Of a stretch of 58,361 bases of DNA, positions 2,247-33,222 are shown in pieces. Every line of letters starts with the position of its first letter. Within the stretch, counting starts at the first letter, position 1. This DNA comes from Pyrinomonadaceae bacterium. Lineage in GTDB: Bacteria; Acidobacteriota; Blastocatellia; Pyrinomonadales; Pyrinomonadaceae. The notes beneath the pieces were generated by a model. That model had not been told where the DNA came from and searched no databases. It saw only the letters and a list, made by a program, of their open reading frames with translations. The position numbers and the translations under genes are program-made. The DNA lies in NCBI GenBank assembly GCA_035601635.1, contig DATNNY010000654.1, positions 1 through 58,361 of the forward strand, given 5' to 3'.

Positions 2247-2307
2247 TTGCGGACCGATCTGCTTTGCACGAACGCTTGATTCAATGCACGGACAGGGAGG
2301 AACGAGT

Positions 2308-3051: not shown

Positions 3052-3152
3052 CCGCAAGCGCAATGCATTCTTGATTCGATCAGTCGCTCAGGAAATGAAG
3101 AGCGTTCAACGCTGAAAGGCTTGTCGACCGCGAGATATAAGGAGACAGAGTC

Positions 3153-3851
3153 ATGCACCCCACCAAAAAGGCCGCACGCATAGCAGGAGCGCTATATCTA
3201 TCCATGGCTCTCTTTGCTCCCTTCAGCCTGATCTATATTCCCAGGACCATGATCGTGCGCGGGGACGCAACTGCGACCGCCGGCAGGATCCTCGATCACC
3301 AGACGGTTTTCCGCCTCGGCATCGTCGCTGAGCTGATGTCTTCCCTGATTTTCATCTTCCTGGTCCTGGCTCTCTACCGTTTGCTCAGCGGCGTCAATCA
3401 GACGCATGCTTCGTTGATGGTGGTCCTGGTCCTGATCGCGGTCGCCGTCGGGTTTGTGAATGTGTTGAATAACGTCGCGGCCCTGACGCTCTTCCGCGGC
3501 GAGAATTTCCTCGCGGTATTCGACAAACCGCAGCGGGACGCGCTGGGCATGTTGTTCCTCAGCTTGCATCGGCAGGGACTTCAGGTTGCCGAGATCTTTT
3601 GGGGCCTGTGGCTTTTCCCCTTCGGCGTACTGGTAATGAGATCGGGCTTCCTTCCCCGGATTCTGGGCGTCTGGCTGATCGTCAACTGCTTCCCTTATCT
3701 GGCCCTCAGCCTTACGGGCTTACTGTTCCCGCAATACCAGGAGATGGTTTATCGCATCGCCTTCCCCGTTCTGTTCGGAGAGTTGGCGATCGCGCTGTGG
3801 CTTCTGATTAGGGGCATAAAGGTGCAACCATTGGCCGCCGCGGCCTCTTAA
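3153..3851 (+). CDS. DUF4386-family integral membrane protein (paralog 2)
   Basis: 232 aa with ARIAGALYL, GDATATAGRILDHQTVFRLG, FLPRILG and GELAIALWLLIRG. Confidence 0.85.
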   Translation: MHPTKKAARIAGALYLSMALFAPFSLIYIPRTMIVRGDATATAGRILDHQTVFRLGIVAELMSSLIFIFLVLALYRLLSGVNQTHASLMVVLVLIAVAVGFVNVLNNVAALTLFRGENFLAVFDKPQRDALGMLFLSLHRQGLQVAEIFWGLWLFPFGVLVMRSGFLPRILGVWLIVNCFPYLALSLTGLLFPQYQEMVYRIAFPVLFGELAIALWLLIRGIKVQPLAAAAS

Positions 3852-3926
3852 TCGAGCGGTCGTGGCGTCATACTCACTTGATTGAGTCGCTACGCATTTT
3901 GATCTTTAGGCATAAGGAGAAGTCGG

Positions 3927-4601
3927 ATGACTCGCACCACGAACGCCAGGATCGCCGGCGCCACATTCCTGCTCTACATCGCGGTCGGCATAGCCGGTGT
4001 GATCCTGTTCGGCCGGGCGACCAGCGGAGACGGGATCGCGGTCAAGCTCGCGAGCATCGCGCAGCACACGACAGAGGTCCGCGTCGCGGTGGTGCTCTCG
4101 CTGCTCACTTGCTTTACGGCCCTCGTGCTGGCCGTGACGTTGTATGGGATCACGCGCGACCAGGATCCCGACCTCGCGATGCTGGCCCTGACCTGTCGCG
4201 TCGCCGAAGGCTTGCTCGGTGCGATCTTCCTGCTAGCGACGCTGGGACTGCTGTGGCTCGGGACGACCGCTGGAGCAAATGCCCCGGACGAGAGGGCGGC
4301 GCGGGCGCTCGGCGCGTTTCTTCTTAAGGTGCAGAGTTGGAGCACGATGATCGGGGCGATCTTCTTCGCCGTCGGCAGTATGCTCTTCTCCTACCTTTTG
4401 CTGCGCGGCCGAATGATTCCCGCGGCACTCGCATGGCTCGGGGTGATCGCGTCGGTGCTGCTCGTTGTGGGCCTTCCCGTTCAGCTCTCTGGATTCTTCA
4501 CCAGCCCGGTTTTCGGGCTGATGTGGTTACCGATGCTCGTGTTCGAGTTGACGCTCGCGCTGTGGTTGCTCATCAAGGGAGTAGCAAAAAGAGCGGTCTA
4601 G
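3927..4601 (+). CDS. DUF4386-family integral membrane protein (paralog 3)
   Basis: 224 aa with ARIAGATFLLYI, RMIPAALAWLG and FELTLALWLLIKGV. Same architecture as the two preceding ORFs. Confidence 0.8.
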   Translation: MTRTTNARIAGATFLLYIAVGIAGVILFGRATSGDGIAVKLASIAQHTTEVRVAVVLSLLTCFTALVLAVTLYGITRDQDPDLAMLALTCRVAEGLLGAIFLLATLGLLWLGTTAGANAPDERAARALGAFLLKVQSWSTMIGAIFFAVGSMLFSYLLLRGRMIPAALAWLGVIASVLLVVGLPVQLSGFFTSPVFGLMWLPMLVFELTLALWLLIKGVAKRAV

Positions 4602-4663
4602 GCAAACTGGCAAAGGCGCGGGAATGTGAAAGGAACAGTGTCCAGGTTGGTTTCGTCGTCCTA

Positions 4664-4785
4664 GGTTCTCATAGTTATTGAAATCTGGTCGATGAGATTA
4701 CAAGAACTTACAAGACTTTTCTCACAGTTAGTGAATCCCGATTCTCATTGTTAGTGATTTCCTGCTTACAAATTCTCGTTGTTCT
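4664..4785. repeat. Tn7-like left-end repeat block, copy A (three putative TnsB-binding sites)
   Basis: Sites are at 4664-4684 (GGTTCTCATAGTTATTGAAAT), 4717-4738 (TTTTCTCACAGTTAGTGAATCC) and 4740-4761 (GATTCTCATTGTTAGTGATTTC). The block aligns along about 125 bp with 11917-12040. Confidence 0.6.
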
Positions 4786-4838
4786 CGAGTTCAGTGTCAC
4801 CCAAGAGACAAACTAGGGACGTGGCCTACTGAGAATTA

Positions 4839-4929
4839 GATTTCAATAACTATAGTGCGGTCAATCTTCAACACTTTAGAAGAATTTTCTCACAGTTACT
4901 GAATCCGGATTCTCACCTGTTATTGATTC
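4839..4929. repeat. second, partial set of Tn7-like end sites (right-end-like site plus two left-end-like sites)
   Basis: ATTTCAATAACTATAGTGCGG (4839-4860) resembles the middle right-end site TCACTAACTATGGTGCGG. TTTTCTCACAGTTACTGAATCC (4886-4906) and GATTCTCACCTGTTATTGATTC (4908-4929) repeat the inner left-end sites. Confidence 0.5.
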
Positions 4930-5251
4930 TTATCGGCCCAACTACATCAGTTAATGCCGCTGGCTTCGCCCACCAATCTTCCGATCTAAATGGATTGCTC
5001 CTGTCACCAGGCGAGGCGCAACCGCTTTGGTATTCTTGCGCAGTTCTTTGCTATTGACAGATTTCTTCTGGGGCAGTAGAGTGTCGAAGCTATAAGCCAG
5101 CGGAGTTTTCGGCGGCGTTTTGAAGTTTGTCCCCGTTGACTGCGATCACCGCTTCAGCATCACACACTTCAGCTGCCCTCTCATCCTGCGACAGCCGCGA
5201 GTCCAACAAGGATAATATCGTCGATGGCGAGCAGGTCGCATTTACCAGCTT

Positions 5252-7483
5252 TTGACCTTGGCAATCGCTATGGCCTCACAGCATAACTTTCACGCTTCCC
5301 TAAAGAATCTTCTTCTGCCCGACCTTCGCGGCATGCGTAAGTGGGTGCTGATTCTGGGCTACATCGTTCTTGCAGCAGCCTTATTGGGAGTCGTCTACGT
5401 TCGTTTTTACGAACGGTTCAGCATGAACGAGTGTAAGAGCGATGGGCCGCAGAAGAATTGCCAGCAGCAACTTACTGCGGTTGAAGTTCCGCCGGTTAAG
5501 ACAGCAGCAAACCATTCAGGGATGTTCCCAGCGGGCGATCTGCTTACGGGAAGCTTCTTCCCGAATGTTCGACAGGCAACTGTCGCGAGTCAGCATTCTG
5601 TTCGTTACGCGCATCATCATACGCAACCAACTGGAAGCGAACAGATCAAAGCAGAAGACGGAACTGAGGAATCAAATTCAGCCAGTCTGTCGACGAATGT
5701 TCTACTTCCCGTTACGAGTGGCGTTGCGCAACCTGAAGCTTCGCCATCGCCCTCATTGCAGGCGCCACAAGATGCGACGCCAAAGTCGGCAAGTAAAAAT
5801 AAGAAACCTAACGCAATCAAACGGTTTGTCTTTTGGCTATGGAGTCTCTTCGCACCCAGGACGCAGTCTTTCATACCTGGCTTACCATCTCTGACATTTT
5901 CACCGTCAAGTTCCGCAAGCCCTTCAACCACGGTTCGGCTGCACTGTTTGCGCGGCAGCCCATGCGTTGTACAGTTTGGCGATTTGCGGGAATTCTACCG
6001 ACCTACATTCGAAGTAACCACGGGCGAAATACGGAAAGAACGTGGGGCGATGATTTGGGATCTTTCGGGAACGGAATCGGGTCTCTATGAGATGCGGATG
6101 CAGTTCGCAGGAAGTAGCAGAAAAGCTTTCGTAGCGATCGAGTGTCCGGATTGCGAGACTGGGCCGACGCCGACCCCAACACCACAGTCCACCCCTACAC
6201 CCCTGGCCACCCCGACGCCGATCCGGACGCCCACGCCAACGCCGACACCCACGCGGACACCAACGCCGCAACCGACGCCGACTCCAGTATGGACCCCAAC
6301 ACCATCGGCGACACCAACTGTGGCGCCGCCATCGCCAACGCCGGCGCGCACCCCGACGGCAGGACCAACGCCGGCCTGGACTACATCGCCAACGCCAACG
6401 CCTTTTGCAACCCCAAGCGGTTCGCCTGCAACTTCGGCAACGCCTCTACCTTTGCAGGAGACTGACTATGCGAATCAATCGTGGCCCGAAAAACTTCCCA
6501 AAGCCTGGGACAGTTACATTACGGTTGAGTTTCAGAGAACCTATGGACCGAAGGAACGACCAACCCCATCGCAATCCCCCGGTATTGTTTCAAGCTCGAC
6601 TCGCCTTCCCATCGTTCCCGGCGGGGAAGGAAATCCCGATAACGAGTTGTATGAAGCTTCTGCTTCAGTGGAGATAGCAAACACGAGCGACCTTGAAGCA
6701 CTACCGAATGGTGATAACGGAGACAAGTCGCTCGACGGGCGAAGACTCGTGCAGTGGACAATTCCGTTTAGATTGAAGAGCAATGTTACTCAACAGCGGG
6801 CTTTCGAGCTAATTTTCAACGTCAAGCTAACAAATAAGAAGACCGGCCAGTCGAAAACCACGTCGTACCATCTCGCGCCAGCATCAATCAAGGTGCACTG
6901 GATTCCGGGAACCAAGCTGCAAGCCTATGGTCTCTTTGGAACCCTTTTCCCGTTTTCATTCGCAATGATAATTTTTCCTGCAATAAAAGTTCAGTTCGGC
7001 GCCCTGGCGGGGCTCGGGCAAGAAGACGGCCAGTTGGCGAGCACGGGAGAATCCGTGATCGAGGAAGAAAACGTGCTCCACGCCAACCTTTGGCTTGAGG
7101 ACAAGGACAAGAGACCAATCCCGCCACCTCTCAGTCTCGAGTGGGGATCTGAGTATCGTCTGCTGTTTGCGATCGAGCCTGAGCTTAGAGAGTTCCTGAG
7201 CAGCAGCCAACTATTCATTGAGCCGCCTGAGCTTCAAAAAAGCCGGAGCACTGATGTCGAAATCCAGGTGATGAGTAGGTTGCTGAGAACCAAACTCGGA
7301 TGCGAGACGCGTAAGGTCGCATATTATTCAGGCAGGGGATTCGCACCTGAAGCTTTCGACATTGCGCCAGTTGCCGAGGGCTGGTACTCAATTACGGTTC
7401 GCCTCTTCTATCGAGAAACCATCATTTATCGCGAGAAAATAGAGGTGGAGGTAAAGGGCGCAACGAGAGCGGCGCGCGCTTGA
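5252..7483 (+). CDS. membrane-anchored protein with a long Pro/Thr linker and a C-terminal domain shared with the downstream kinase
   Basis: 743-aa ORF. The real start may be ATG at 5270 or 5333. N-terminal TM helix is WVLILGYIVLAAALLGVVYV. A (T/S)P-rich linker lies around 6160-6450. The C-terminal roughly 130 aa are homologous to residues encoded at 8430-8825. Confidence 0.7.
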   Translation: MTLAIAMASQHNFHASLKNLLLPDLRGMRKWVLILGYIVLAAALLGVVYVRFYERFSMNECKSDGPQKNCQQQLTAVEVPPVKTAANHSGMFPAGDLLTGSFFPNVRQATVASQHSVRYAHHHTQPTGSEQIKAEDGTEESNSASLSTNVLLPVTSGVAQPEASPSPSLQAPQDATPKSASKNKKPNAIKRFVFWLWSLFAPRTQSFIPGLPSLTFSPSSSASPSTTVRLHCLRGSPCVVQFGDLREFYRPTFEVTTGEIRKERGAMIWDLSGTESGLYEMRMQFAGSSRKAFVAIECPDCETGPTPTPTPQSTPTPLATPTPIRTPTPTPTPTRTPTPQPTPTPVWTPTPSATPTVAPPSPTPARTPTAGPTPAWTTSPTPTPFATPSGSPATSATPLPLQETDYANQSWPEKLPKAWDSYITVEFQRTYGPKERPTPSQSPGIVSSSTRLPIVPGGEGNPDNELYEASASVEIANTSDLEALPNGDNGDKSLDGRRLVQWTIPFRLKSNVTQQRAFELIFNVKLTNKKTGQSKTTSYHLAPASIKVHWIPGTKLQAYGLFGTLFPFSFAMIIFPAIKVQFGALAGLGQEDGQLASTGESVIEEENVLHANLWLEDKDKRPIPPPLSLEWGSEYRLLFAIEPELREFLSSSQLFIEPPELQKSRSTDVEIQVMSRLLRTKLGCETRKVAYYSGRGFAPEAFDIAPVAEGWYSITVRLFYRETIIYREKIEVEVKGATRAARA
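6163..6440. repeat. low-complexity Pro/Thr-coding repeat (TPTPTP...)
   Basis: Translated as TPTPTPQSTPTPLATPTPIRTPTPTPTPTRTPTPQPTPTPVWTPTPSATPT. This region generates several spurious alternate-frame ORFs. Confidence 0.9.
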
Positions 7484-21807: not shown

Positions 21808-24291
21808 TCAGTGCTTCAATCTCAGCGAATCGCGAATTCTTTCCACGTCTGTTTTCAAATACCGGCTTCGACCGTATCCGTCGACATTCGGCCCTGATAC
21901 TCTTTCCAGTACTCCTTTTTTCACTAATCTGTTAAAGACGCCCTTGGTTAGCTGAAGAATCTCCGCAGCAGCTTTTGCTCCGACACGATTCCTATGTGTT
22001 TCAACGAACGCGTCAAGGTCTTCCTCTACGATATAAAAACAGTGAAGGTGTTTTTCAGATTGTATAGCTGGCAGTGCTCCGCGCAGAATTGCCTTTCTAA
22101 GTGTGCTCACAACTATTCCGACGCGTTTCGCGGCAATGTAGATAGACAGAAGTGATGCGAACGGGAGTTTTCTACGTCTGCACTCGCCGACTAATTCGGG
22201 CTGTAGAAAATATCGATTTCTGGTGGACGGCCGACGGTACCGAATCGAAGATCTTAAGAACCCGTTTTGGACCATGCGGTGAGCTGAATCTTCGTCGATG
22301 CTAAGCGCGCTGCAAACTTCTTTGAGGTCAAGGCTGCAGGTGGGCACCGTCGAGTGGTCCGTGGCTCGATAGTTTGAAATAAGCTCCCGTAAATCAAGGT
22401 TTGCCAAGTCGACTTGGCTAAAAATATATTGAAGGCCTCCGTCAATTGTCCGTCCTGAGATGGGATGGATATTCTTGTCCCGGAGAACCGCAACAATGTA
22501 ACCCGTATCGGTATCCAGTTTTTTCGCAATGGTCCTTGTAAGCACAACATACTTCACGCTGAACGCACTAACATCCTCGCTATTTATGAAACGGCCGAGG
22601 GATTCAAAACCCGGAATTAGTTTGGCGTTCAGCAAACCCTTGTTGGCAAGAAAATATACTTCCATTAGATTCGTTTTGAGCAACTGAGCAGTTTCTTCAA
22701 GCGAATGCACTTTGCCCGTGAATCCCTGCATCTTACCGCGAGCAAAATCTGCGATCTCGACCGCTGAGAAAAGGATACTAGATAGCACGGGTTTTCTGGT
22801 TTTGCTGCTGATATGTACTTCACCGTCAAAGACAGCTTTGATTAGGGTTCCGCAGTGACCGCCGGCTCGTCTTACGGTCTGAAGAGCATTGCGAAGGGTC
22901 TTTGTTTGATCAGACTTCTGGGTTCGCGCAACCACCGATTCAGCCAGACGAGTTAAGAACAAATCGATACTTGCAGAGCTAAATCGCCACTCGTGATTTC
23001 CCTCGATTACTGGACCGCGTATCGGGGTTAACAACTTGCTTTCGACAAGTTCAATCAACCGCTTCGCATGAGTTCCCAATTTGTGAGCTGTTTGATTAAG
23101 GCACATTGAGTCTTTCAATTCGTCTCGTAGGTTAATAACACTCTCTGCTTCAATTAGTAGTAATCGGGACTCGCCGGTTTTCTTAGCTTCCGTAAGTTTT
23201 CCAGCCGCGATTAGTTTCTTGATACTTCGAGGTGTAACGTTAAGGATCTGTTTTGCCTCCACTACGGTTAGATACTTCCTTTGAGCGGTATTGCTCAGAC
23301 GGGACAATGTCGTCGGGTAACCGCCGCGCCACTGAGTCGCAATATATTCTTCGAAACCCTCTCGTAAGAAGTCATAACAAGGGTCGGCTAACTGAACGTA
23401 GAGAGCAGATTTGTACTGACCGAAGTCTCTTCTTAACCCTCGTCCATGTCTGCTATCCGGATTGTTTTCGCGTTTCCAATCGAGAAATGAGAAAAAGTTG
23501 TTGGGCCAATTTTGGAATACTTTGTAGGCTTTGGCGATAAGTGAGTGAATCTCTTTGTTGCGAAATGAGTTTGAAATCCGCTTGCCTCTAGTATCCATTA
23601 ATCCTTGGAACTGGCCGACAATGAAAAACAGAGCGGATAACAATTGACTAAGACTCAAGGTTGTAAGAGGACATTCGGCGTCGACCTTGCTTTTGGATGG
23701 ATCTGCTTTTATTAGGTTGCATAATTGGTAAATTCTTTGTGCTACGTGCAGTTCGTCATTTGTAACTTGCTGGCCTTTCCACGATCTCCAATCGAATTCA
23801 CAGACACAAGTGGCAATTGCAGTTCGACGCCAACCGATTCTTTGGTTGCATCGCGGACATCTATCAAGGAGTACACGTCTATGTAAGGGACATGCAGTGA
23901 CAGCAGCGAATTCCCAGATTTTTCGCGCGTAAAGGCGTTCTCTTAAACACTCAGGACAGATTTTAGATTCACAAACTCGAATAGTGTATCGAGGAACGGG
24001 GTTACCGAATAACGAGTAGTCGTGCAGTGTTCCTGCGCGGTTAACCGGCTCGTACCAAAGGTCCCTCAGTGCAGATTCAGAGACGCCAGTCAATATCTGG
24101 AGTTGTTGCAGGTTCCACACGCTAATGGACGACAGTGAGAAGTCCCATCTATTGGTCGGAATCTTTGCGAGATCCAGAATCCATGTGATGACATCGTACT
24201 GGTTGAGTTCGGTCAGTCTAAGCACGAAACCAGGAAGACTCTCATCGGCATAGGGAGTTGCTGAGAAAACCAGCCTTTGATTGTTTGTCAT
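21808..24291 (-). CDS. tniQ: TniQ/TnsD-like target-selection protein with multiple C-terminal HTH modules
   Basis: 827 aa. N-terminal TniQ signature is PYADESLPGFVLRLTELNQY plus a Cys cluster (CPECL...CPLH...CPRCNQ). At least six HTH_17/MerR-like segments follow, for example YLTVVEAKQILNVTPRSIKKLIAAGKL and GAKAAAEILQLTKGVFNRLVKKGVL. Confidence 0.85.
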   Translation of the reverse strand: MTNNQRLVFSATPYADESLPGFVLRLTELNQYDVITWILDLAKIPTNRWDFSLSSISVWNLQQLQILTGVSESALRDLWYEPVNRAGTLHDYSLFGNPVPRYTIRVCESKICPECLRERLYARKIWEFAAVTACPLHRRVLLDRCPRCNQRIGWRRTAIATCVCEFDWRSWKGQQVTNDELHVAQRIYQLCNLIKADPSKSKVDAECPLTTLSLSQLLSALFFIVGQFQGLMDTRGKRISNSFRNKEIHSLIAKAYKVFQNWPNNFFSFLDWKRENNPDSRHGRGLRRDFGQYKSALYVQLADPCYDFLREGFEEYIATQWRGGYPTTLSRLSNTAQRKYLTVVEAKQILNVTPRSIKKLIAAGKLTEAKKTGESRLLLIEAESVINLRDELKDSMCLNQTAHKLGTHAKRLIELVESKLLTPIRGPVIEGNHEWRFSSASIDLFLTRLAESVVARTQKSDQTKTLRNALQTVRRAGGHCGTLIKAVFDGEVHISSKTRKPVLSSILFSAVEIADFARGKMQGFTGKVHSLEETAQLLKTNLMEVYFLANKGLLNAKLIPGFESLGRFINSEDVSAFSVKYVVLTRTIAKKLDTDTGYIVAVLRDKNIHPISGRTIDGGLQYIFSQVDLANLDLRELISNYRATDHSTVPTCSLDLKEVCSALSIDEDSAHRMVQNGFLRSSIRYRRPSTRNRYFLQPELVGECRRRKLPFASLLSIYIAAKRVGIVVSTLRKAILRGALPAIQSEKHLHCFYIVEEDLDAFVETHRNRVGAKAAAEILQLTKGVFNRLVKKGVLERVSGPNVDGYGRSRYLKTDVERIRDSLRLKH

Positions 24292-24328
24292 TTATTCCGA
24301 CGGAATTGCGGCAACCTCCAATAATGAC

Positions 24329-25393
24329 TCAGCGCTGCGAAAGCACATCGGACATCGAACGCTTATTCCTCCGCGGCTTTATTCTTTTGTTTGTTGCATT
24401 CGTCGAAGGAGTTGCGCGTTTCGCAGGTGTTCTAGGCTTAGCGCAATTACTCATTTGGCTAAAGGGATTCGGACGTTTGACAAAATCCTGCGCTACCCTT
24501 TCTTCATAGGCTCGAGCAAGGAGTGAGTGATCGATTTGTTCGGCACCGGTCTGAATAGCCAGCTTTGCCGCCCACCGAAGGAGCTTCATTACATAGTTGA
24601 TAACGCCATCCGTTGCCGAATAGATCAAAAACGCAGTCTCCTTATCTGCAAGATGCGAATTCTCCAAAAGCGGCAACCTATCATCAATTTCTTTTAGTAG
24701 TTGTCTAAACTCGGGGTCTTGAGCTTCAGCCTCCCAAGCAAACGGTGCGATCTCTTCTCGAGAGGAGAAGCGACGTTTGAGTTGTTCGTTTCCCTTGTTC
24801 TCTAAGACGCTTTCACAGCCAGGCATTCCGACAAGAACGATTGGCCGACATGTTTCATTAATCAGGTTCTTCAGCCAATCTGAAATGGTTTTTAGTATGT
24901 TCTTTGTTTGCCTGTCGTCGAAGTGCTGAAACTCATCGAGGATGATCAGTTCGACTTCGCAATCTCTTATGTATTTTCTCAGTCGCAACGTAATCGAACT
25001 AACGGTGCCTTTATCCGCGGCGGGATCTCCCAATGCTTCGAGCATTGCAGAACCAAGGCCTTTGACTGTTGCCGGTGAAGGTACAGTCACCACAAGGACG
25101 GGAACGATTCGTTTCTCAGGCGTCTCACGAGCCGGAAAATTGCTGGCGTACCATTTAATGAGTGTCGTTTTTCCGGCTCCTTTAGTCCCCGTGATCAACA
25201 TGCATTCAGGTTCAGCTGAGATCTTTGAAAACTCGCGGCAAAACTCGATCTTCCCGTAGAGATTTTTCAACCTGGGGTATCTGACGAACACTTGCTCGAT
25301 CATGACAAGCCGTTCAGCTGTGCTGAGCTTACCAAAACGGTCAGTCCGGTCGTTTCTTCCCTCATTTTTGCGATGCTTGATTTTCCGTTTCAT
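24329..25393 (-). CDS. tnsC: TniB/TnsC-like AAA+ ATPase
   Basis: Walker A is ITGTKGAGKTT and Walker B is LIILDEFQH. The gene sits between tnsB and tniQ and overlaps the tnsB stop. Confidence 0.85.
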   Translation of the reverse strand: MKRKIKHRKNEGRNDRTDRFGKLSTAERLVMIEQVFVRYPRLKNLYGKIEFCREFSKISAEPECMLITGTKGAGKTTLIKWYASNFPARETPEKRIVPVLVVTVPSPATVKGLGSAMLEALGDPAADKGTVSSITLRLRKYIRDCEVELIILDEFQHFDDRQTKNILKTISDWLKNLINETCRPIVLVGMPGCESVLENKGNEQLKRRFSSREEIAPFAWEAEAQDPEFRQLLKEIDDRLPLLENSHLADKETAFLIYSATDGVINYVMKLLRWAAKLAIQTGAEQIDHSLLARAYEERVAQDFVKRPNPFSQMSNCAKPRTPAKRATPSTNATNKRIKPRRNKRSMSDVLSQR

Positions 25394-27456
25394 GATTTCC
25401 TCCCGGGCAAGTTGTAATCGGACTCGAATTCATCCAAATCCAAGTCCTCCTCTTTCACGAGATCCATTTCAACCGGACTCACCGCGTCTTTCGTAAGCGG
25501 GTCTAGATCGCTTTGCTTTCTAGTCCGTTGGTTGTGAGATCGAGATGTCTTGTGCTTGTTGACGTAAGGTTCGACGACATTGGAGCTTGAGGTTGCACCG
25601 TTAACATTAGAAGTCTGAGTTTCATCAATTGCAATTGTCTTTGATTTGGAGACCACATCGAAAGCGTCGACGCCAATTTCAGAGTCGGCTCGCGTACCAT
25701 TGGAGGATTGGGTGTCCTTTTCTTGGGGAGGTGTTACGCTTACTTCGACTCGACCGGTCGACTTACCACTGCCGCCCTGCCAAAGCGCAGCTTTGACGCT
25801 AGAGCTACTCTTGCTACGCACATTCAATTCACTGTTTACAATCTTCTGGATACGCTCCTTAGCTAGGCTGAGCTGCTCTCCATCTACATAGTCCTCAGCC
25901 GTAAGGCGGGCCTCTCTTTTGATGACCTTGTGCTGCCACAGGGTCAAACCGGACGTGTAGTCTTGGTCTACAGCAGGCACAGGCAGATAAGAATTCGTCT
26001 CGCTGTCGTAGGCATGAATCAGCGATATGTCCATTGGATCATATTTGATCTTCACCTGATCGCCTTTCTTGTGACGACTCTTCAATGGACTCAGACAGGG
26101 ATGGTTGTAATAGAGCCCCCAGATTTCGATTCCTGAACTGGAGATGGAACGGTGCTCGATGTGGCCCAGTAGTATGTTCAATTCTTCAGCCTTGTAAGGA
26201 AGGGCTGGAGGAAACTCCTTAGTACCTTCTTCCCACCTTCTGGCGGGGACGTCACCGATTCCCCGATGGATACTGCGGTGGTACACATCGATGATCGAAG
26301 TGTGCAAAAGCTCATCGAGAGTTTGCATCGAGACCAACGCGTTCTTCTTTGGATCGTAGTCCCACTTCTCTGCAATATTTGAAAAAGTGGTGCCCGGAAT
26401 CTGGTGCAATAGTCTCTTGTTGAGAGTCCCGAACATTCGTTCAACCGATGGCTTATAGTAGGGGTGCCTTATCGGCGCGTACTGCGTGATGATTCCCAGT
26501 TGCAGACACGCTTCATCAAAACTCCTGCTGTAGTACTGTTTTGCATTGTCGACTACCAGCACTTCGGGAAGGCCATAGGCATCCCAGGAGTGAACAATTC
26601 CTGGGTAACGTTCTTTCACATAAGTTTTGGGCTTGATGCTATGTAGCAGAGTCTGCATAACCGAGAGATAGCTCGGCCGCACAAAGCTCAGGTAGTAACC
26701 CAGGATCATTTTCGTGAAGGCGCAAATTGCGATCATCAGCCATGGCCGCCCAATTGGGAGATTCGTTTTTTCGTCGATAACAAACAGGTCAAGTTTCGTG
26801 TCATCCATTTCGACTCGCTCTAGAGGACGAGTTGGGCGGACACCTTGCTTATTAACTTTATGTCGAAGGTCGGCGATGCGCTTGCTGTATCGAGCTTTGT
26901 CCTTTTCGTAAGGATCTAGTTTGTTGATCACGCGGTAAAGAGTGTTTCGGTGAGGAATCGGTAGCTTGTCTCCCTTGTCTCTAAATCTATTCTCTTCTCT
27001 AATCCGGGCTTCGATTAGGTCGTAGGTGGACTGCACCGTCGGACGCGTGCGTGACAAGTAATGCTCATTCACAACATCGTCGATAATTTTCTCGACCGCC
27101 TTGCATGTTTCGAGATCATCGCTGATACGTCTGCCATCGTTGTCGCTGACTTTGCCTCTAGCCTTAAACGCAGGCGCCAAAGCCCGAATATCATCGCCAG
27201 CCGCCGTGTAGGTTCTGTGCCAGCGAGAAACTGTTATGCAGGTTGGTGGGTTGAGGTCTTTGATGTCCTTGCTGACCTTATCAATAACCGGCTTCAAGTT
27301 CTCTGCGTTCTTGCCAAAGCTCGTTAGCGCTGATTTGCAAATGCCTTCGACGTACGCGAGGCGCCGCAGCGCTTCGATTTTTCTAGGATCGATGTCTTCG
27401 AGCGCTTCGAAATCATTGATGCTCGACCATTGTCGCCGCGCCTGGACATTTTCAAC
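25390..27456 (-). pseudogene. tnsB: tnsB (Mu/DDE transposase), 3' segment downstream of the IS insertion
   Basis: The ORF-track start (TTG 27297) is an artefact. The frame stays open upstream and encodes VENVQARRQWSSINDFEALEDIDPRKIEALRRLAYVEGI... with no start codon. It joins in frame to 30808-31010 once the IS is removed. A DDE/rve core is present (DDTKLDLFVID...). Confidence 0.85.
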
Positions 27457-27666
27457 CGGAAGTATGTACTTTACGCAAAGGGAAGGTCTGACGGTTTCAT
27501 GAGCCGCCGGAGCGGGAATTTTCAGAATCTTACTTCGGCCAGCCCTCTGCGGGTTTCTTCTTCTCTAGCGACTTCTTAACTGCATCTTTCCAGTCGCCTT
27601 CAAGTTTCAGTATATCCGCTTTAGGCCCCGGCTTGGCTCGTTTCTTTTTAGCGAGTTTCTTTTTCT

Positions 27667-27909
27667 TCACAGCTTCATCTTATCGTCAATCAGCGCATCT
27701 ACAATCACTCCGGCCAGTCGCGCGTACTTGAGCAAGACTGGCAACGATGGTTGCCGCTTGCCACTTTCAAACTGAGAAATAATCGCTCGATCCGTCACGC
27801 CTAATTCCTTTGCAATCTCGCTCTGAGACAATCCAGCTCTGATTCTCACTCGCCTCAGCTTTCGCGCCAGCTTGCGCGGATAGTCTCGCCCCCGCTTGGT
27901 AGTTCCCAT
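27667..27909 (-). CDS. XRE-family HTH regulator
   Basis: 80 aa containing LSQSEIAKELGVTDRAIISQFESGKRQPSLPVLLKYARLAG. Paralogous to ORF 35695-36165. Confidence 0.8.
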   Translation of the reverse strand: MGTTKRGRDYPRKLARKLRRVRIRAGLSQSEIAKELGVTDRAIISQFESGKRQPSLPVLLKYARLAGVIVDALIDDKMKL

Positions 27910-28074
27910 CAGGACTGACCTCCTGATGGATTTCCCTTGCAGCTAGGAGCGTTCGCTACTAGACTATGCGCCGTGCTAGAGGATGCCCGGACGATTTGAA
28001 GCGTCCGAGCGAGAGGCATTAGCCGCTTTGTCCTCTTGCTCTAATTTTCAAAATAACGATCTCTTTTCAAACAG

Positions 28075-28240
28075 CATATGGGAGCACAGTGCAAGTAAGC
28101 AAGAGTGAGCTTGCCGAAACCATGCTCCCATGTAGAGAGCGGGGCGACGTTGGGGTGAGGACAACCGTCGCCAGCTCTCACTAAGCGGGGAAGTCACTTG
28201 TGAGCGTAGTGGGACGCTCGCCGACTTCCCCGCTCTAACA
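28075..28240. ncRNA. candidate structured RNA (three or four consecutive strong hairpins); strand and function unknown
   Basis: Stems read by eye: ATGGGAGCA/TGCTCCCAT; GAGAGC..GGCGACG/CGTCGCC..GCTCTC; AGCGGGGAAGTC/GACTTCCCCGCT enclosing GAGCG/CGCTC. The segment is locally GC-rich inside an AT-richer IS. No convincing ORF covers it. Confidence 0.3.
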
Positions 28241-28449
28241 TCATGCAAAACATCTACGCCGCGACTCCCAAAGGTCTTATCTATCACCTGCTGGCCGAAT
28301 ACCATCGCACCCTTTGCGGCCTGTACATCGTCGGCGATCTTCACTTGTTCGCCGGGATACCAAAGGATCGGATTCTCTGTAAGCATTGCGAGACGATAGC
28401 TTCGCAAAACAAGTCTACTTCCGTCTCCTGAATTGCTGTACCCTTAGAC

Positions 28450-29436
28450 CTATAAAACGACAGGCCCCTTATACCTTAGCCGTTTTCCTTCAGCTTCGCG
28501 GATCGCCAAAGCCATTCGCTCGCCATCGTTCAATTCCCGGTTGTTCCACATGAAATCGAACTGCCAGATGTAGCGATGTAAATGCTTCTTGCTTACGTTG
28601 TGATAGATACCAACGATGCCGCGCTTGACTAGCGCGAATGAGCTTTCAACCGTGTTCGTGTTGACATCACCACGAGCATATTCCTTCGCGCTATGGCACA
28701 CTGTTTCATGGCCCGCATATTCAAGGTCGATCCCGTTGTATGACGGATTCTCGTCGGTGAGGATGAATGCTCGCTTGTCTACTACTTCGCGGATTGCATC
28801 TTTCAAGGTGTCGCCCGTCACGTCCGCAACCACTCGCCGTCTGATTCTACCGTTGCGTTCGACAGCCGCGAAAACTGGCTGTTTGTTGGTTCCGCGTCCG
28901 CGCTTACTGATGCCCTTGTATCGCGGTTTTCCGCCCACATACGTTTCGTCACATTCAACAATACCCGTAAGCTTTGGCGTGGCATCGTCTGGGGCCATCG
29001 CAAATCTGATTCGATTCATGAGGAATAACGCCGTGCGATAGCTGCATTGGGTGTGACGTTTAATCTCAAGCGCACTGACACCTTTTTTCGAGGTTGAGGC
29101 TCGCCAGAACGCATAGCACCAATGACGAAGGGGAAGCCGTGACTCTTCAAACACAGTTCCAAGACGAACGGTGTATTGTTGTTTGCAATCGTGACAACGC
29201 CACAGAAAACGCTTGCTCCGTTCACCCGTCTTCCGGTCAACCATTTTATAGACATCGACGCTACCACAGTGAACGCAACACGGCTCGTCGCCCCAACGCT
29301 GAGCCTCAAAAAATTCCACGGCGGTTAGTTCATCAGCGCACGCGAGCGGCATCTGCTTAATAACAGCGGAACTAGATAGGCGATGCTTGTTCTTGTTCAT
29401 GTTGCTAATTTTACACTTAACGCAATTCACTGTCAA
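28450..29436 (-). CDS. IS1595-family (ISXO2-like) DDE transposase
   Basis: N-terminal zinc ribbon is CCVHCGS...WRCHDCKQQYTVRLGTVFEESRLPLRHW. An ISXO2-like core follows (IVECDETYVGGK, ILTDENPSYNG). Confidence 0.85.
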   Translation of the reverse strand: MTVNCVKCKISNMNKNKHRLSSSAVIKQMPLACADELTAVEFFEAQRWGDEPCCVHCGSVDVYKMVDRKTGERSKRFLWRCHDCKQQYTVRLGTVFEESRLPLRHWCYAFWRASTSKKGVSALEIKRHTQCSYRTALFLMNRIRFAMAPDDATPKLTGIVECDETYVGGKPRYKGISKRGRGTNKQPVFAAVERNGRIRRRVVADVTGDTLKDAIREVVDKRAFILTDENPSYNGIDLEYAGHETVCHSAKEYARGDVNTNTVESSFALVKRGIVGIYHNVSKKHLHRYIWQFDFMWNNRELNDGERMALAIREAEGKRLRYKGPVVL

Positions 29437-29659
29437 GAGGAAAGTTGCGGCTCGGATTTCGACTTCCCGAAATAGTCCCTTGACTCCATAGAAAGGACGG
29501 GTTAGAGTGCAGAACGAAAAAGGGAGCGAGCCGCTACAAGCTCACTCCCCGGTTCACGGCCTAACTGGAATAGGCCCCCTAATTGATACCTACCATCTAC
29601 CAACAGACAGGGACATTCTAGCATCATATAAAGGTCTTTGACAACACATAAAATGGTTG

Positions 29660-29746
29660 TGGGGACGACAGGAATTGCACCCGCACGAGCCTTTCGGCTC
29701 ACCGTATCGACAGTACGGCGCGTCTGCTAATTTTCGCCACGTCCCC
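29660..29746 (-). tRNA. type II (long variable arm) tRNA-like gene with apparent GUC anticodon and a non-canonical T-loop
   Basis: Hand-folded. Acceptor GGGGACG/CGTCCCC is perfect. Anticodon stem CCGTA/TACGG has loop CTGTCGA. The variable arm is GAGCC-GAAA-GGCTC. T-stem GCGGG/CCTGT has two G:U pairs. T-loop is TGCAATT rather than TTCRANY. No CCA is encoded. Confidence 0.4.
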
Positions 29747-29774
29747 ATATCCACGGTCGGGCTTGAAAATGTAA

Positions 29775-29848
29775 TGGGGCGAACTCTGGGGATCGAACCC
29801 AGACCTTCGTAGTACTGGTACGACATGCTACCGTTACACCAAGCCCGC
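29775..29848 (-). tRNA. 74-nt tRNA gene with an atypical anticodon loop CCAGUAC (C33; nominal anticodon AGU)
   Basis: Hand-folded. Acceptor GCGGGCT/AGTTCGC has G4:U and G5:U pairs. D-loop is AACGGTA. Anticodon stem is TCGTA/TACGA. T-arm CTGGG-TTCGATC-CCCAG is canonical. Discriminator is C and CCA is encoded. Confidence 0.6.
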
Positions 29849-29988
29849 CACACGGCGGCGGAGAGGTTTTCATTTTTGCGAGTGAGCCTCTTCGCCGTTC
29901 TGGTTTTCAAACACCTTCACTAAATCACAGACAAGACCTTGCTGCAAGCACTATTTCATCGGTGAAACAATTTTTCAGAATGGTTCCC

Positions 29989-30651
29989 TCAGTCGTCATC
30001 AAGACTTAGGGCTACCGGTTCGGCTTTCTTATCAGACACCTCTGGTTCGTCTTCCAAACTGAGTCCGGCTGGCGCTCTCTTGTGGCCGTTACTACTCACG
30101 GCAGGTTCATCTTCATCTACTGTCTCGACGATCATGAATGGGCTGCTGTTACCTTTTTTGAACGCCTCTGCGGTAGTCCATTCCAACAGCCCAAACTCGT
30201 TCGGGCCAGTCTTAACAAAAATCTGATCCTTCCGGGCATAGAGCCCTAACTGACCAGCGAGCGATGCGCGGGTTTTCTTGTTGATCTCTTTCCCGATTGC
30301 GGTCAGCAAAGTATCTACGTGAAGCGGCTTGCGAACATCGCGCAACGCATCGCGTGCCTTGCTCGCTTCACTACCTCGACGAAGCGCAATCTCCGCGCGG
30401 CCTTCGTCGCCTTCTTCATCCGGCAAACTTTTTAGTACGGCCTGAAGTTCCTGCATCGCAAACTCATTGGCTTCGATATCGCCAAAAATCTCGCTCGCCT
30501 GACCGTGCAAATTTGCTAACGTCATCTGAATCTTGTCGATACGCTTTTGGATCGCGGCGCGTGCGCTGATGGGCATAACTAAAACCTTCCTTTCGGGCTT
30601 TTGGCTTGGAAATCCCGGCAGGCCTAAGGGGGAACCAACTGAGACTGGCAA
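29989..30651 (-). CDS. HARE-HTH-like winged-helix protein
   Basis: LHVDTLLTAIGKEINKKTRASLAGQLGLYARKDQIFVKTGPNEFGLLEW resembles the HARE-HTH motif. The tail is acidic. The likely start is MPISARAAIQ near 30576. Confidence 0.55.
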   Translation of the reverse strand: MPVSVGSPLGLPGFPSQKPERKVLVMPISARAAIQKRIDKIQMTLANLHGQASEIFGDIEANEFAMQELQAVLKSLPDEEGDEGRAEIALRRGSEASKARDALRDVRKPLHVDTLLTAIGKEINKKTRASLAGQLGLYARKDQIFVKTGPNEFGLLEWTTAEAFKKGNSSPFMIVETVDEDEPAVSSNGHKRAPAGLSLEDEPEVSDKKAEPVALSLDDD

Positions 30652-30807
30652 ACTGAGAGAATTTTAACCTCCGATTTTGCTGAGGTCAAGAGAAATGTTA
30701 AAAAGTGAGAGTGCGTGATGTTGGCGAGAGGGTAGGGCAGCCGTAAAGTCTAGCTTTTGTTAAACGTTTGGCGTTTTAAGGTTAATTGCGTAAAGTACAT
30801 ACTTCCG

Positions 30808-31010
30808 TTTTCAACTTCTCCGTTTGCGCCTAACAGCTCGGCGATTCCCTCAAATAGCGCCTTCAGGATTTCTGCCTCCGGTTTGGAGCACAAAGTTTCG
30901 GTAGCCAGGTGTTTGAGTTGGAGTTCGCCATTGGCCAAGCGTTTTTCAATCGAATAGCGTTGGCCGGAAAGTTTGATTTGCAGCCCTTGTCGCAGCCTTT
31001 GGCCTTTCAT
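30808..31010 (-). pseudogene. tnsB: tnsB, 5' segment upstream of the IS insertion
   Basis: MKGQRLRQGLQIKLSGQRYSIEKRLANGELQLKHL...GANGEVEN. The rest of ORF 30750-31010 (GSMYFTQLTLKRQTFNKS) is read-through into the IS inverted repeat. Confidence 0.8.
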
Positions 31011-31288
31011 ACTTTTCCTCCCTGGTTGCTTTCTGGCTGTGACAGGTAATAACTAACAATCAGCTTGGTGAGGGCGCAGATTTTAAGCGTCAGCCACGGT
31101 CGGCCAACGGGCAGTCTTGTCCTTTCACCTACGACGAACAGATCTAGTTGTGTATCGTCTATCTCGAGGTTCTCCAGCGGGCGGTAGTTATTGTCTCCTT
31201 GGTCTGCGTCACGCTGACTAGTCGCCGAACAGCGCAGGCTTTTTTGCGAAACGGAAACGTGGTCGTCAGTGTTGTCAAAGCGATTCAT
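31007..31288 (-). pseudogene. isolated fragment of a TnsB-like catalytic core between tnsA and tnsB
   Basis: LENLEIDDTQLDLFVVGERTRLPVGRPWLTLKICALTKLIVSYYLS parallels LERVEMDDTKLDLFVIDEKTNLPIGRPWLMIAICAFTKMILGYYLS in the main tnsB. It is only 93 aa. Start and stop overlap both neighbours. Confidence 0.6.
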
Positions 31289-31932
31289 CCTTCACCTCCA
31301 TCGTTGTTTTCAGAGTTAGTTGGAAGCCATATCGGGCTCTTCATACTGAGAGGAATTAAGTAATCGGTAACGATAAAATGGTGGTACATCAGCGCCAGGA
31401 CCACCGGCCTTTCAGCGCCTCGTGATTCAAAAAGCTCGAGAAGTTCCCCTAGCGTTGCTGTTTGGCGATGTAAGAAAAATTCATGGCATAAGAGATGGTG
31501 TTGTGGATGAATTGACGTCCGCGAGTAGTATCTCAATCTCTTGATCGTAGTTAAGAACGGTTCGACTAAAATCTCGCGTTCGGTTTTGACGAGAAAGTCA
31601 TAACCCGCACGATCACATATCGGCGTGACGATCCGAAACAATTGCTCGAACCAGGGTGTAATCAGTCGTTCATACTTAACCTCAACAATCAGCGGACGCT
31701 GTTGTTTCCGATAGACCAGAAAATCGGCCGTAAACGATCGGCGTTTTCCATTCAACTCGTAAAAGACTCTTATTGACTGTGTAGAGTAGGAAATGACGTT
31801 TCGATCGTGCTCGCACCGTAGGGCAAGGCACAGTTCAGCGATCGATTCGGTCCAAATGTTTCGACCGTTCTTCTGGCTCGGAAGCTTGCAGACATTTATA
31901 CGGCGTCCGCCGTTGTGGATTTTTCTGAGCAT
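31285..31932 (-). CDS. tnsA: TnsA-like endonuclease
   Basis: ESIAELCLALRCEHDRNVISYSTQ...FTADFLVYRKQQRPLIVEVKYERL shows a restriction-endonuclease-like D...E-x-K core typical of the TnsA N-terminal domain. Confidence 0.8.
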   Translation of the reverse strand: MLRKIHNGGRRINVCKLPSQKNGRNIWTESIAELCLALRCEHDRNVISYSTQSIRVFYELNGKRRSFTADFLVYRKQQRPLIVEVKYERLITPWFEQLFRIVTPICDRAGYDFLVKTEREILVEPFLTTIKRLRYYSRTSIHPQHHLLCHEFFLHRQTATLGELLELFESRGAERPVVLALMYHHFIVTDYLIPLSMKSPIWLPTNSENNDGGEG

Positions 31933-31947
31933 GGTGCCCCCTGAGCT

Positions 31948-33222
31948 TTATGGTTCTTGAGAATGCGAGCTGGGAGATGTTGCGCATTCGGAAGTGTTAT
32001 CGGCACGGCTATGACAGTGAGCGTTTATTCCTCGGGTGATTTTAAAGAGTGAGGAACGATCTAGCTTCAAACGTCTGGCAGCATGGCTCATATTTCCGTT
32101 ATAGCGACGCTTCACAGCCTCGATAGCTGCAGCTCGCACGCGTTGCGTAAAATCGTGAAAAGACTCACCCGCAAAAAGAGTGCGGCAGGAATCAGGCAGG
32201 TCGATCGTCTGCGAATCGAGATATTTGAACCGGGCCAATTCGGCGTGGACATTTGCAGCGGTGACGTTGGTACCGCCGGCGTAGCAAGCGAGCCGCGCTA
32301 TAACGTTTTGCAATTGCCGAATGTTGCCTGGCCAGTCATAAAGACAAAGTTCATTGAGAGCGGCTTCATCTAGTTGCACGGACTTAACTGAACTCAACTC
32401 AGATCGCTCTGCGGCAAACCTTCTGAAAACGAGTTCCGGAATATCCTGGCGACGTTGGCGCAATGGCGGAATGTCAAGTTGGAGTACTGCGAGGCGGTAA
32501 TAGAGATCGTCTCGAAAGCTGCCGACCGCGATCATTCGATGGAGGTTACGTGACGACGCAGCAACGAGCCGCACGTTGCAGTCAATGTCAGTGAGCCCCC
32601 CCAACCGTCGGATCTTTCGGCAATCAATCGCTTTAAGTAGTTTCGCTTGCAGTTCCGGTTTGAGTTCGCCAATCTCATCCAAAAACAGTGTGCCGTTGTG
32701 CGCAACTTCGAAGAGACCTTTCTTGCGCCCCGTGGCACCTGTAAAAGCTCCTCGCTCGAATCCAAAGAGTTCGCTTTCAAGAAGGTGTTCGGGCAGAGCG
32801 GCGCAATTGACGTCAACGAAACGCGCGGCAGAATGTTTGCTGCGCTCGTGAATGATCTGAGCCACAGTTGTTTTGCCTGTGCCGGATTCTCCCGTTAGCA
32901 GCACGGCGTGCTGTACTCGCGCCGCGTGAGATATTTGTTCGTCGAGACCGCGCATGCTCGGCGATTGACAGACCCATTGGGCGTTCCGCGAAGATTCGGA
33001 AACGGTGCGGCCTTCAGCCACTGCCGAAAAAGCTGCTCTGAGTGTGGTCGGTTTTTTTCCATCGACACGTACATCTCTCCTGAGAAGAGGTTTTTTGAGA
33101 ATGCGCAAGCTAACCATGGAGAATTCCCAAGACAGAATCTCCATTAGACATACTGAAAAAGCGTGAAAGTGTGACAGGGGTGAAGGCGGGGAACCGGGGA
33201 AATGCCCGGGATCTTCTAACAA
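31948..33222 (-). CDS. sigma-54-dependent transcriptional activator (bEBP) without a recognisable N-terminal sensor domain
   Basis: AAA+ Walker A is LTGESGTGKTT. The GAFTGA loop is FERGAFTGATG. WPGNIRQL is present, and the C-terminal Fis-type HTH is NMSHAARRLKLDRSSLFKI. The likely start is M at 33117, leaving only about 60 aa before the AAA+ core. Confidence 0.85.
   Translation of the reverse strand: MLEDPGHFPGSPPSPLSHFHAFSVCLMEILSWEFSMVSLRILKKPLLRRDVRVDGKKPTTLRAAFSAVAEGRTVSESSRNAQWVCQSPSMRGLDEQISHAARVQHAVLLTGESGTGKTTVAQIIHERSKHSAARFVDVNCAALPEHLLESELFGFERGAFTGATGRKKGLFEVAHNGTLFLDEIGELKPELQAKLLKAIDCRKIRRLGGLTDIDCNVRLVAASSRNLHRMIAVGSFRDDLYYRLAVLQLDIPPLRQRRQDIPELVFRRFAAERSELSSVKSVQLDEAALNELCLYDWPGNIRQLQNVIARLACYAGGTNVTAANVHAELARFKYLDSQTIDLPDSCRTLFAGESFHDFTQRVRAAAIEAVKRRYNGNMSHAARRLKLDRSSLFKITRGINAHCHSRADNTSECATSPSSHSQEP

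Follow-up and report, generated by a model that had tools for sequence, protein, structure and literature searches.

The 58,361-nucleotide contig DATNNY010000654.1 of a Pyrinomonadaceae bacterium (assembly GCA_035601635.1; hereafter the window) carries two adjacent transfer RNA (tRNA) genes with unusual anticodon loops, here called tRNA-A and tRNA-B, inside an insertion sequence (IS) of the IS1595 family. Both genes are most likely functional tRNAs that form a dicistronic cargo module of this element, and their sequences suggest that each pairs an identity read mainly outside the anticodon with the anticodon of another amino acid: a histidine-type acceptor with a threonine anticodon in tRNA-A, and a leucine-like class II body with an aspartate anticodon in tRNA-B. 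The initial annotation of this DNA had described two neighbouring tRNA-like genes with these odd loops, carried as IS passengers in the same direction as the transposase; every sequence detail that it gave is present, but on the minus strand, and the passenger status is borne out by inverted repeats, an 8-bp duplication and IS1595 matches in Pfam. The two genes and the boundaries of their carrier are as follows.

29775..29849, minus strand: tRNA-A, including the encoded G-1 (29849), from ARAGORN, Rfam, homologs and metatranscriptome contigs
29660..29746, minus strand: tRNA-B, class II with a Leu-like body, from ARAGORN, Rfam, our own covariance model, covariation and metatranscriptome contigs
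27457..30807, minus strand: IS1595-family insertion sequence of 3,351 bp, from terminal inverted repeats, target duplication and Pfam
27457..27478, plus strand: terminal inverted repeat at the low-coordinate IS end, CGGAAGTATGTACTTTACGCAA
30786..30807, minus strand: terminal inverted repeat at the high-coordinate IS end, the identical 22 nt inverted
27449..27456: target-site duplication TTTTCAAC, copy 1, 8 bp
30808..30815: target-site duplication TTTTCAAC, copy 2, 8 bp

The 3,351-bp element could be delimited because its 22-nt inverted repeats are flanked by the 8-bp direct repeat TTTTCAAC, and the inverted repeat itself matches twice in the window and not once in 100 shuffles. Members of the IS1595 family produce 8-bp duplications and sometimes bear passenger genes, and the window IS combines an 8-bp duplication and inverted repeats with a transposase that matches DDE_Tnp_IS1595 (1.6e-40) and Zn_ribbon_IS1595 in Pfam and lies on the same strand as the tRNAs. 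Along the minus strand, the gene order is a coiled-coil/winged helix-turn-helix (wHTH) gene, tRNA-A, tRNA-B, a promoter-like box and a terminator-like hairpin, the transposase, and an XRE module; the two tRNAs are co-oriented and 28 nt apart.

tRNA-A is called as tRNA-Thr(agt) by ARAGORN at 29775-29848 and scores 49.3 bits with Rfam RF00005, against a gathering score of 29. Its acceptor stem (GCGGGCU/AGUUCGC) contains G4:U69 and G5:U68, and G-1 pairs with the discriminator C73 to give an 8-bp acceptor of the histidine type, with CCA encoded. The anticodon stem UCGUA/UACGA holds the loop CCAGUAC, which comprises C33, the threonine anticodon AGU and A37, the D-loop reads AACGGUA, and the T-arm is canonical (CUGGG-UUCGAUC-CCCAG). 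The gene was originally likened to tRNA-Gly in its layout; what it has instead is the mark of tRNA-His, a genome-encoded G-1 opposite C73, joined to a Thr anticodon in place of the histidine anticodon GUG, a combination that recurs in sister ISs. In six aligned His-type homologs, G-1, G1, C72 and C73 are invariant, and the anticodons are UGU, GGU and CGA as against AGU in the window. tRNA-A is identical base for base in the IS at locus L196 (related loci are given L numbers), though the two transposases are 89.5% identical. C33 appears again in L193, in the partner tRNA of L078, which is more distant and again shows an 8-bp acceptor and a CC-NNN-AC loop, and in 6 of the 72 distinct members of the class II family described below. 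Taken alone, the minimum-free-energy fold of tRNA-A gives no cloverleaf (z = -0.59), a measure that is uninformative for a tRNA.

tRNA-B is called as tRNA-Asp(gtc) by ARAGORN at 29659-29746, and scores 42.4 bits with RF00005 and 78.5 bits in the family covariance model. Its acceptor stem is perfect (GGGGACG/CGUCCCC) and is followed by A73, with CCA not encoded; the anticodon loop CUGUCGA comprises U33, the aspartate anticodon GUC and G37; and the variable arm (GAGCC-GAAA-GGCUC) consists of 5 bp capped by GAAA. The T-loop is UGCAAUU, with G55, and the D-loop AAAAUUAGCAGA, with A18, has no GG dinucleotide. Among the canonical elongator rules (U33, purine 37, and G18-G19 with U54-U55-C56), tRNA-A departs by C33 and tRNA-B by A18 together with G55. 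The G-1 of tRNA-A, the D-loop of tRNA-B without GG and its A73 without an encoded CCA were all absent from the initial annotation. tRNA-B has the bacterial tRNA-Leu marks A73 rather than G73, the class II long variable arm and a Leu-type D-arm (3-bp stem, A14 and A15), and differs in the anticodon, which is GUC here and mostly NGG in the family instead of NAG or YAA. In E. coli genomes, the only full-length BLAST matches to tRNA-B are tRNA-Leu genes, weak at E = 3. Judged by these features, the body is Leu-like rather than Ser-like, because A73 occurs in 72 of 72 family sequences, G73 never does, and the Leu anticodons UAG, CAA and GAG occur in members located in tRNA arrays; from the earlier proposal of a Ser- or Leu-type body, the leucine half stands and the serine half falls.

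The tRNA-B family was collected from two directions. A transposase search over one genome per species gave 80 loci, mostly in Acidobacteriota and also in Verrucomicrobiota, Planctomycetota, Proteobacteria and Gemmatimonadota, in which ARAGORN and a covariance model built from 16 family members (R1) identified 22 class II tRNAs adjoining the transposase, at 72-97 bits. A reverse search of metagenomes with a pattern of the tRNA only, with the anticodon free, the T-loop fixed and the D-loop not fixed, yielded 60 contigs, each of which R1 confirmed (63-92 bits). The family comprises 80 sequences, 72 of them distinct. Among these 72, 98.7% of stem cells are paired and 22 of 24 pairs have changed on both sides, a level reached by 0 of 500 shuffles and set against 39-48% pairing in slid controls, in an alignment whose fitting to the covariance model favours the pairing figures somewhat; compensatory covariation is present in all five helices. 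All 72 have A73 and ACC follows the acceptor in 48, while U33 is found in 66, C33 in 6 and purine 37 in 70.

The T-loop UGCAAUU, listed at first among the abnormal features, is explained by the same alignment. G55 occurs only with A18 (51 sequences, AG/UG) and U55 only with G18 (20 sequences, GG/UU), with no mixed case among the 72, and because this covariation is without exception, the odd loop is not damage; A18/G55 is, as the alignment indicates, a compensating change in the D-loop/T-loop contact. G55 T-loops also occur elsewhere: viral contigs from IMG/VR (L081-L132), which match the T-arm 16-mer and were considered as IS relatives, proved to be phage tRNA arrays, and many of their tRNAs have the T-loop UGCAA or UGCGA, mostly without GG in the D-loop. 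A crude count in these arrays gives GG/UU 81, AG/UG 46, GG/UG 27 and AG/UU 4, and several of their tRNA-Leu calls are only 73-77 nt long and so have no long variable arm.

The anticodon, by comparison, varies within one type of body: UGG in 54 of the 72 sequences, AGG in 4, CGG in 3, GGG in 1, GUC in 3, UGC in 2, UUA in 2, and CCC, GAG and UAG in 1 each, and the UAG member lies within a tRNA array, as does a further, lower-scoring CAA tRNA. GUC is kept in three diverged bodies, namely those of the window, of L153, whose acceptor and variable arm differ from the window's, and of L196, whose stems differ and whose GG/UUCAACU corner is canonical. Because GUC recurs in L153, L196 and metatranscriptome variants, the GUC of the window is, on this comparison, a minority state and not an accident. 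A change of anticodon with the body left intact is what anticodon-independent charging would permit.

RNA evidence covers both genes. Four soil or plant metatranscriptomes contain contigs that, within a 900-bp stretch, align only to 29654-29903; both tRNAs are present on some single contigs, and the variants keep GUC and CCAGUA while their stems differ; as these are assembler contigs, DNA carry-over is possible and transcript ends cannot be read from them.

The association with IS1595 elements recurs well beyond the window. A common inverted-repeat consensus bounds related copies in L002-L034, always with the tRNA inside, and among 28 related ISs delimited by inverted repeats, 15 contain a class II tRNA and 2 more contain other tRNAs. 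Likewise, 35 of the 60 contigs found by the tRNA pattern alone also carry an IS1595 transposase, and many of these 35 are only 1-3 kb long. Relative to the transposase, the class II tRNA is placed 60-230 nt upstream and in the same direction in the window and at nine genome loci. Among the metagenome contigs, this upstream, same-strand placement goes with transposases that share 57-97% identity with the window's. A second IS1595 sub-clade, with transposases of ~40% identity, has the tRNA in convergent orientation, directly against the 3' end of the transposase gene; divergent arrangements occur as well. Eight homologs of the wHTH protein were found, each followed by two tRNAs, and in L194, L196, L198 and L199 the wHTH gene and the tRNAs are followed by an IS1595 transposase 86-89% identical to that of the window. 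The pairs compare as follows.

Window and L196: first tRNA His-type with AGU (C33), second class II with GUC
L194: first tRNA His-type with GGU, second class II with UUA (ochre)
L193: first tRNA His-type with UGU (C33), second type I with CCC, no transposase seen
L198 and L199: first tRNA type I with GUC (G73), second His-type with UGU

Further irregular tRNAs linked to ISs were observed. The UUA tRNAs, at 1299-1387 (plus strand) in L194 and 1120-1207 (minus strand) in L155, are class II and Leu-type, and the latter has a tRNA with an 8-nt loop as its partner. A tricistron in L190 (9449-9760, minus strand) consists of a 95-nt GAC tRNA, a His-type CGA tRNA and a class II UGG tRNA, and the IS tRNA of L017 has U:U mismatches in its anticodon stem. 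Related IS1595 elements otherwise carry a very wide range of cargo, which often resembles defence or toxin genes (L014, with the IS at 62-5685, L008, L026 and L203-L205), with examples such as a RelA_SpoT-domain protein (L014), an NYN-domain protein (L008), DUF3800 and proteasome-like proteins. In L203, SocA_Panacea, XRE and a GNAT acetyltransferase are the neighbours of an irregular tRNA and a homologous wHTH gene, and a cargo open reading frame (ORF) of 1,009 aa in related elements is a candidate fused restriction-modification enzyme by its appearance.

What these tRNAs might do depends on the marks that synthetases read. In bacteria, leucyl-tRNA synthetase (LeuRS) recognises A73, the tertiary core and the large variable region but none of the anticodon bases; histidyl-tRNA synthetase (HisRS) relies on G-1 and C73, with G34, U35 and G36 also in the His set; and alanyl-tRNA synthetase (AlaRS) relies on G3:U70 (PMC9976931). 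The aspartyl enzyme (AspRS) needs G73 and C38, the prolyl enzyme (ProRS) G72 and G15:C48, and the threonyl enzyme (ThrRS) G4-C69 and G5-C68 (PMC9976931). The cargo tRNAs carry the anticodon-blind marks and lack several marks of the anticodon-cognate synthetase, and a third anticodon-blind identity system is represented by the related IS of L013 (6915-6988, minus strand), with an Ala-type tRNA (G3:U70 and A73) that has the Arg anticodon ACG. Charging by HisRS and LeuRS, followed by missense decoding that would place His at Thr codons and Leu at Asp codons, is preferred because the anticodon-blind marks are kept, the cognate marks are missing and the anticodons drift as far as stop; we give this reading a little less than even credence. 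The earlier view of tRNA-B as a missense candidate is credible, because its body is of an anticodon-blind identity type. Processing, charging synthetase, ribosomal use and benefit to the IS or its host are steps that we infer as follows. The pair would be transcribed together, and RNase P processing would retain the G-1 of tRNA-A; host HisRS would charge tRNA-A and LeuRS would charge tRNA-B, whatever the anticodon; and the charged tRNAs would compete weakly with cognate tRNAs on the ribosome, so that His might be inserted at Thr codons of the ACU/ACC type and Leu at the Asp codons GAC/GAU. The IS would thereby act as a mobile missense ('recoding') module. In published in vitro work, E. coli HisRS charged tRNAs from acidobacterial polycistrons that combine G-1 with a Thr anticodon, and did so better than it charged tRNA-His itself (PMC5389517).

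A number of points weigh against missense decoding after HisRS and LeuRS charging. The HisRS-charged G-1 tRNA(GGU) gave no His at an ACC codon in E. coli (PMC5389517), and decoding should be weakened by C33 in tRNA-A, L193 and the L078 partner, and by the pyrimidine 37 of the GUC tRNAs in L198 and L199. Positions 35-36 stay constant (NGG, NGU) with position 34 free, a pattern that anticodon recognition by ProRS and ThrRS would select as well. The transposases of 13 UGG-bearing ISs have no Pro at conserved Leu columns, and those of the window clade have neither Asp at conserved Leu/Ser columns nor Thr at conserved His columns. The separate idea that the IS relies on programmed recoding of its transposase was rejected, as alignments of 26 and then 30 transposases show no signature of it. 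Proteome-wide Asp-to-Leu or Pro-to-Leu replacement should be toxic, with no benefit evident. More tentative still, and on balance doubtful, is the general proposal that IS1595 elements spread, across several soil phyla, tRNAs built for anticodon-blind charging, and thereby install regulated low-level code ambiguity or nonsense suppression as a mobile 'mistranslation module'. The toolkit of such a module would include Leu bodies bearing Pro, Asp, Ala, Gly or stop anticodons, His acceptors bearing anticodons for Thr or Ser, and Ala acceptors (G3:U70) bearing one for Arg.

Folded and perhaps charged tRNAs need not decode, and the pair could instead act as decoys, antidotes or regulators alongside tRNA-directed toxins or defence, shielding the host or the IS from enzymes that cleave or modify tRNAs, or as a toxin-antitoxin-like addiction module, which we consider rather unlikely. 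The RelA_SpoT cargo of L014, the NYN nuclease domain of L008 and the SocA_Panacea, XRE and GNAT genes of L203, found in sister elements or as neighbours, are of kinds that act on tRNAs or form parts of toxin-antitoxin systems, and C33 and pyrimidine-37 loops suit poor ribosomal use. For the published acidobacterial tRNAs, toxin-antitoxin neighbours were noted, charging by HisRS did not lead to decoding, and E. coli was killed by two engineered variants (PMC5389517); in addition, phage tRNAs with altered anticodon loops evade anticodon nucleases (PMC10264068). However, the wobble base, which anticodon nucleases usually read, is free (U, C, A or G before GG; A, U or G before GU), and a pure anticodon-loop decoy needs no conserved A73, G-1:C73 or encoded CCA. 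Moreover, the window IS has no recognisable toxin among its Pfam matches and ORFs, and the very diverse cargo of its relatives includes no fixed partner. It is also conceivable, and in our view improbable, that the tRNAs have their ordinary meaning, being charged by ThrRS, AspRS or ProRS according to the anticodon so that the IS adds to the decoding capacity for Thr, Asp or Pro; ThrRS would then recognise tRNA-A by G35/U36 together with G1-C72/C2-G71. Positions 35-36, constant in both families, are precisely those that bacterial ProRS and ThrRS read, G1-C72 and C2-G71 of tRNA-A are Thr acceptor determinants, A73 is a ProRS determinant as well, and the GUC tRNA of L198 and L199 has the full Asp set (G73, G10 and C38). 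Yet AspRS needs G73 and C38, and tRNA-B offers A73 and A38; the ProRS elements are missing from the class II family, with C72 in 48 of 72 and a Levitt pair of the A15 type instead of G15:C48; and tRNA-A has G:U pairs in place of G4-C69 and G5-C68, and A34 in place of G34. Switches to GUC, UGC, CCC and UUA in one body would abolish cognate charging, whereas the bodies are intact, and the ochre anticodon UUA has no cognate synthetase.

A role in cis, in which the tRNA-like genes would be processing sites, insulators or promoter elements that control the transposase, is less probable again. It would suit the position of the class II tRNA upstream of the transposase on the same strand at the nine genome loci and in the window, as well as the conserved terminator-like hairpin and promoter-like boxes between the two, but the position and orientation of the tRNA vary (convergent in the ~40%-identical sub-clade and divergent in others), the transposase has its own conserved promoter, and the conservation of the anticodon, A73, CCA and tertiary pairs would be left unexplained. 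A relaxed Rfam scan (E <= 1) of the whole IS returned the two tRNAs only, with no T-box or other cis-regulatory RNA, and a T-box or other known riboswitch in the transposase leader after tRNA-B was likewise rejected, the hairpin there being a plain terminator-like stem. Finally, decaying tRNA pseudogenes picked up by chance (the initial annotation had offered decay as one explanation) would account for the near-universal rules that are broken (C33, G55, the missing G18, two acceptor G:U pairs) and for the U:U mismatches of L017. This is now very hard to maintain, and effectively refuted, in the face of covariation in five helices and in the tertiary contact, of the identity of tRNA-A in an L196 IS whose transposase has diverged by 10%, and of RNA contigs over both genes; ARAGORN calls the two genes, and their Rfam scores are far above the gathering score.

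The remaining features of the IS are listed below.

28450..29400, minus strand: IS1595-family DDE transposase, 316 aa from the ATG at 29400 (MNKNKH...), from Pfam and homolog alignment
29408..29436, minus strand: transposase promoter-like TTGACA-17-TAAAAT, ending 7 nt before the ATG at 29400, conserved in L194, L196, L198 and L199
29521..29550, minus strand: conserved hairpin of 12 bp with a U-run after it, resembling an intrinsic terminator, located between tRNA-B and the transposase
29615..29644, minus strand: promoter-like TTGTCA-18-TAGAAT directly after tRNA-B, conserved
29853..29866, minus strand: conserved motif CCTCTCCGCCGCCG just 5' of the tRNA pair, at the same place in L193, L196, L198 and L199
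29989..30576, minus strand: passenger protein with a coiled coil and a HARE-HTH-like winged helix, 5' of the tRNAs, from a weak Pfam HARE-HTH match
27530..27909, minus strand: XRE-family helix-turn-helix gene (80 aa, 27667-27909) overlapping a 46-aa lysine-rich ORF (27530-27670), Pfam HTH_3 2e-12

The IS transposase is 316-328 aa long, the public gene call is 316 aa and homologs begin MDKNH..., and the true start is likely the ATG at 29400 on this comparison; the longest ORF begins at a TTG at 29436, inside the TTGACA -35 box. Because the TAAAAT box lies only 7 nt before this ATG, the transposase mRNA is probably leaderless. The hairpin at 29521..29550, a plain stem by fold with compensatory differences among homologs, probably ends the tRNA transcription unit. 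The region 29505-29644 (minus strand) contains a promoter-like box, a small hairpin and the strong terminator hairpin, which together could encode a separate RNA of ~95 nt (fold z = -2.9); none of the matched metatranscriptome contigs covers it. The wHTH passenger, a candidate repressor, is 195 aa in the public gene call, with a longest ORF of 220 aa from a TTG at 30651, and its closest relatives and those of the transposase are in a Chloracidobacterium and a Pyrinomonadaceae metagenome-assembled genome. The XRE module is passenger cargo 3' of the transposase and has an equivalent pair of 78 aa and 46 aa in L198. A 119-aa ORF at 28048-28407 was rejected as a gene, as it has no Pfam match and is unlike the ORF at the same place in L194.

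The IS itself is inserted within the tnsB gene of a Tn7-like element in the region 21808-33222, all on the minus strand. This element comprises a TnsA-like gene (31285-31932), a TnsB-like gene (Mu transposase C / rve, 25390-27297), TniB/TnsC (24329-25393) and TniQ with a helix-turn-helix (21808-24291), with a sigma-54 activator at 31948-33222 upstream of them. The insertion splits tnsB into fragments at 25390-27456 and 30816-31010, in-silico excision of the IS together with one copy of the repeat gives back a 767-codon open frame, and the Tn7-like transposase was probably inactivated by the insertion, to judge from the interrupted frame. Elsewhere in the window, Rfam finds an Acido-Lenti-1 RNA at 984-1029 (plus strand; 44.2 bits, gathering score 37), which, along with the Chloracidobacterium and Pyrinomonadaceae relatives of the transposase and wHTH protein, indicates an acidobacterial host.

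Naturally occurring tRNAs with an identity that does not match the anticodon are rare, the known cases being allo-tRNAs, nematode nev-tRNAs and Streptomyces tRNA-ProX. The closest precedent is the description by Mukai et al. (2017; PMC5389517) of 'polycistrons of allo-tRNA-like and other irregular tRNAs' (tRNA0/tRNA1/tRNA2) in acidobacterial soil metatranscriptomes, with a mention of possible links to toxin-antitoxin systems and transposable elements. Those polycistrons, like the window pair, come from soil or peat Acidobacteria and metatranscriptomes and have two or three adjacent odd tRNAs, one with G-1 and a Thr anticodon and another in which a long variable arm goes with a missense or nonsense anticodon, and the window pair matches them in kind (tRNA1 and tRNA2) when compared by description. 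It differs in that tRNA-A has AGU with C33 rather than GGU, and PMC5389517 does not report internal cargo of IS1595, a family of Leu bodies with Pro anticodons or A18:G55 covariation. tRNA-B is not itself an allo-tRNA: allo-tRNAs have a 12-bp acceptor branch divided 8/4 or 9/3 between acceptor and T-stem, a long D-stem like that of tRNA-Sec and the Ser identity element G73 (PMC5389517), whereas in tRNA-B the acceptor has 7 bp, the T-stem 5 bp and the D-stem 3 bp, the discriminator is A73 and the core is Leu-like, and an 8/4 or 9/3 fold is impossible for it, as an extended acceptor gives U:U and G:G while the 7/5 fold covaries.

Another parallel is offered by the nematode-specific V-arm tRNAs (nev-tRNAs; PMC3333845, PMC4300185), which are class II Leu-like bodies with non-Leu anticodons (Gly CCC, Ile UAU) that are charged with leucine in vitro, as LeuRS ignores the anticodon. 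As described there, they are unlike the window pair in being eukaryotic and chromosomal, with no transposable element, other anticodons and no His-type partner. Phage tRNAs (PMC10264068; PMC11555353) are likewise tRNA genes of mobile elements with non-standard anticodon-loop bases, but their identity matches the anticodon and they replace host tRNAs destroyed by defence, whereas here the two are mismatched and the carrier is an IS. Compared with IS1595 elements in general, the passengers here are tRNA genes, and recurrently so. Our literature search found no description of IS1595- or IS-borne tRNAs as regular cargo beyond Mukai et al. (2017) and reviews, nor of a natural bacterial family of Leu bodies with Pro anticodons or of an A18:G55 switch, and the link of irregular tRNAs to IS1595 appears to be undescribed.

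The odd acidobacterial tRNAs of the 2017 metatranscriptomes can thus be seen as cargo of a definable and widespread IS lineage, which also brings to light a large conserved family of Leu-type bodies with Pro anticodons and many natural variants, ochre suppressors included. A genetic unit of ~3 kb bounded by inverted repeats offers an entry to mobile mistranslation or suppression modules or, equally, to tRNA-shaped regulators or decoys, and the bodies of this family may serve as starting points for orthogonal tRNAs.

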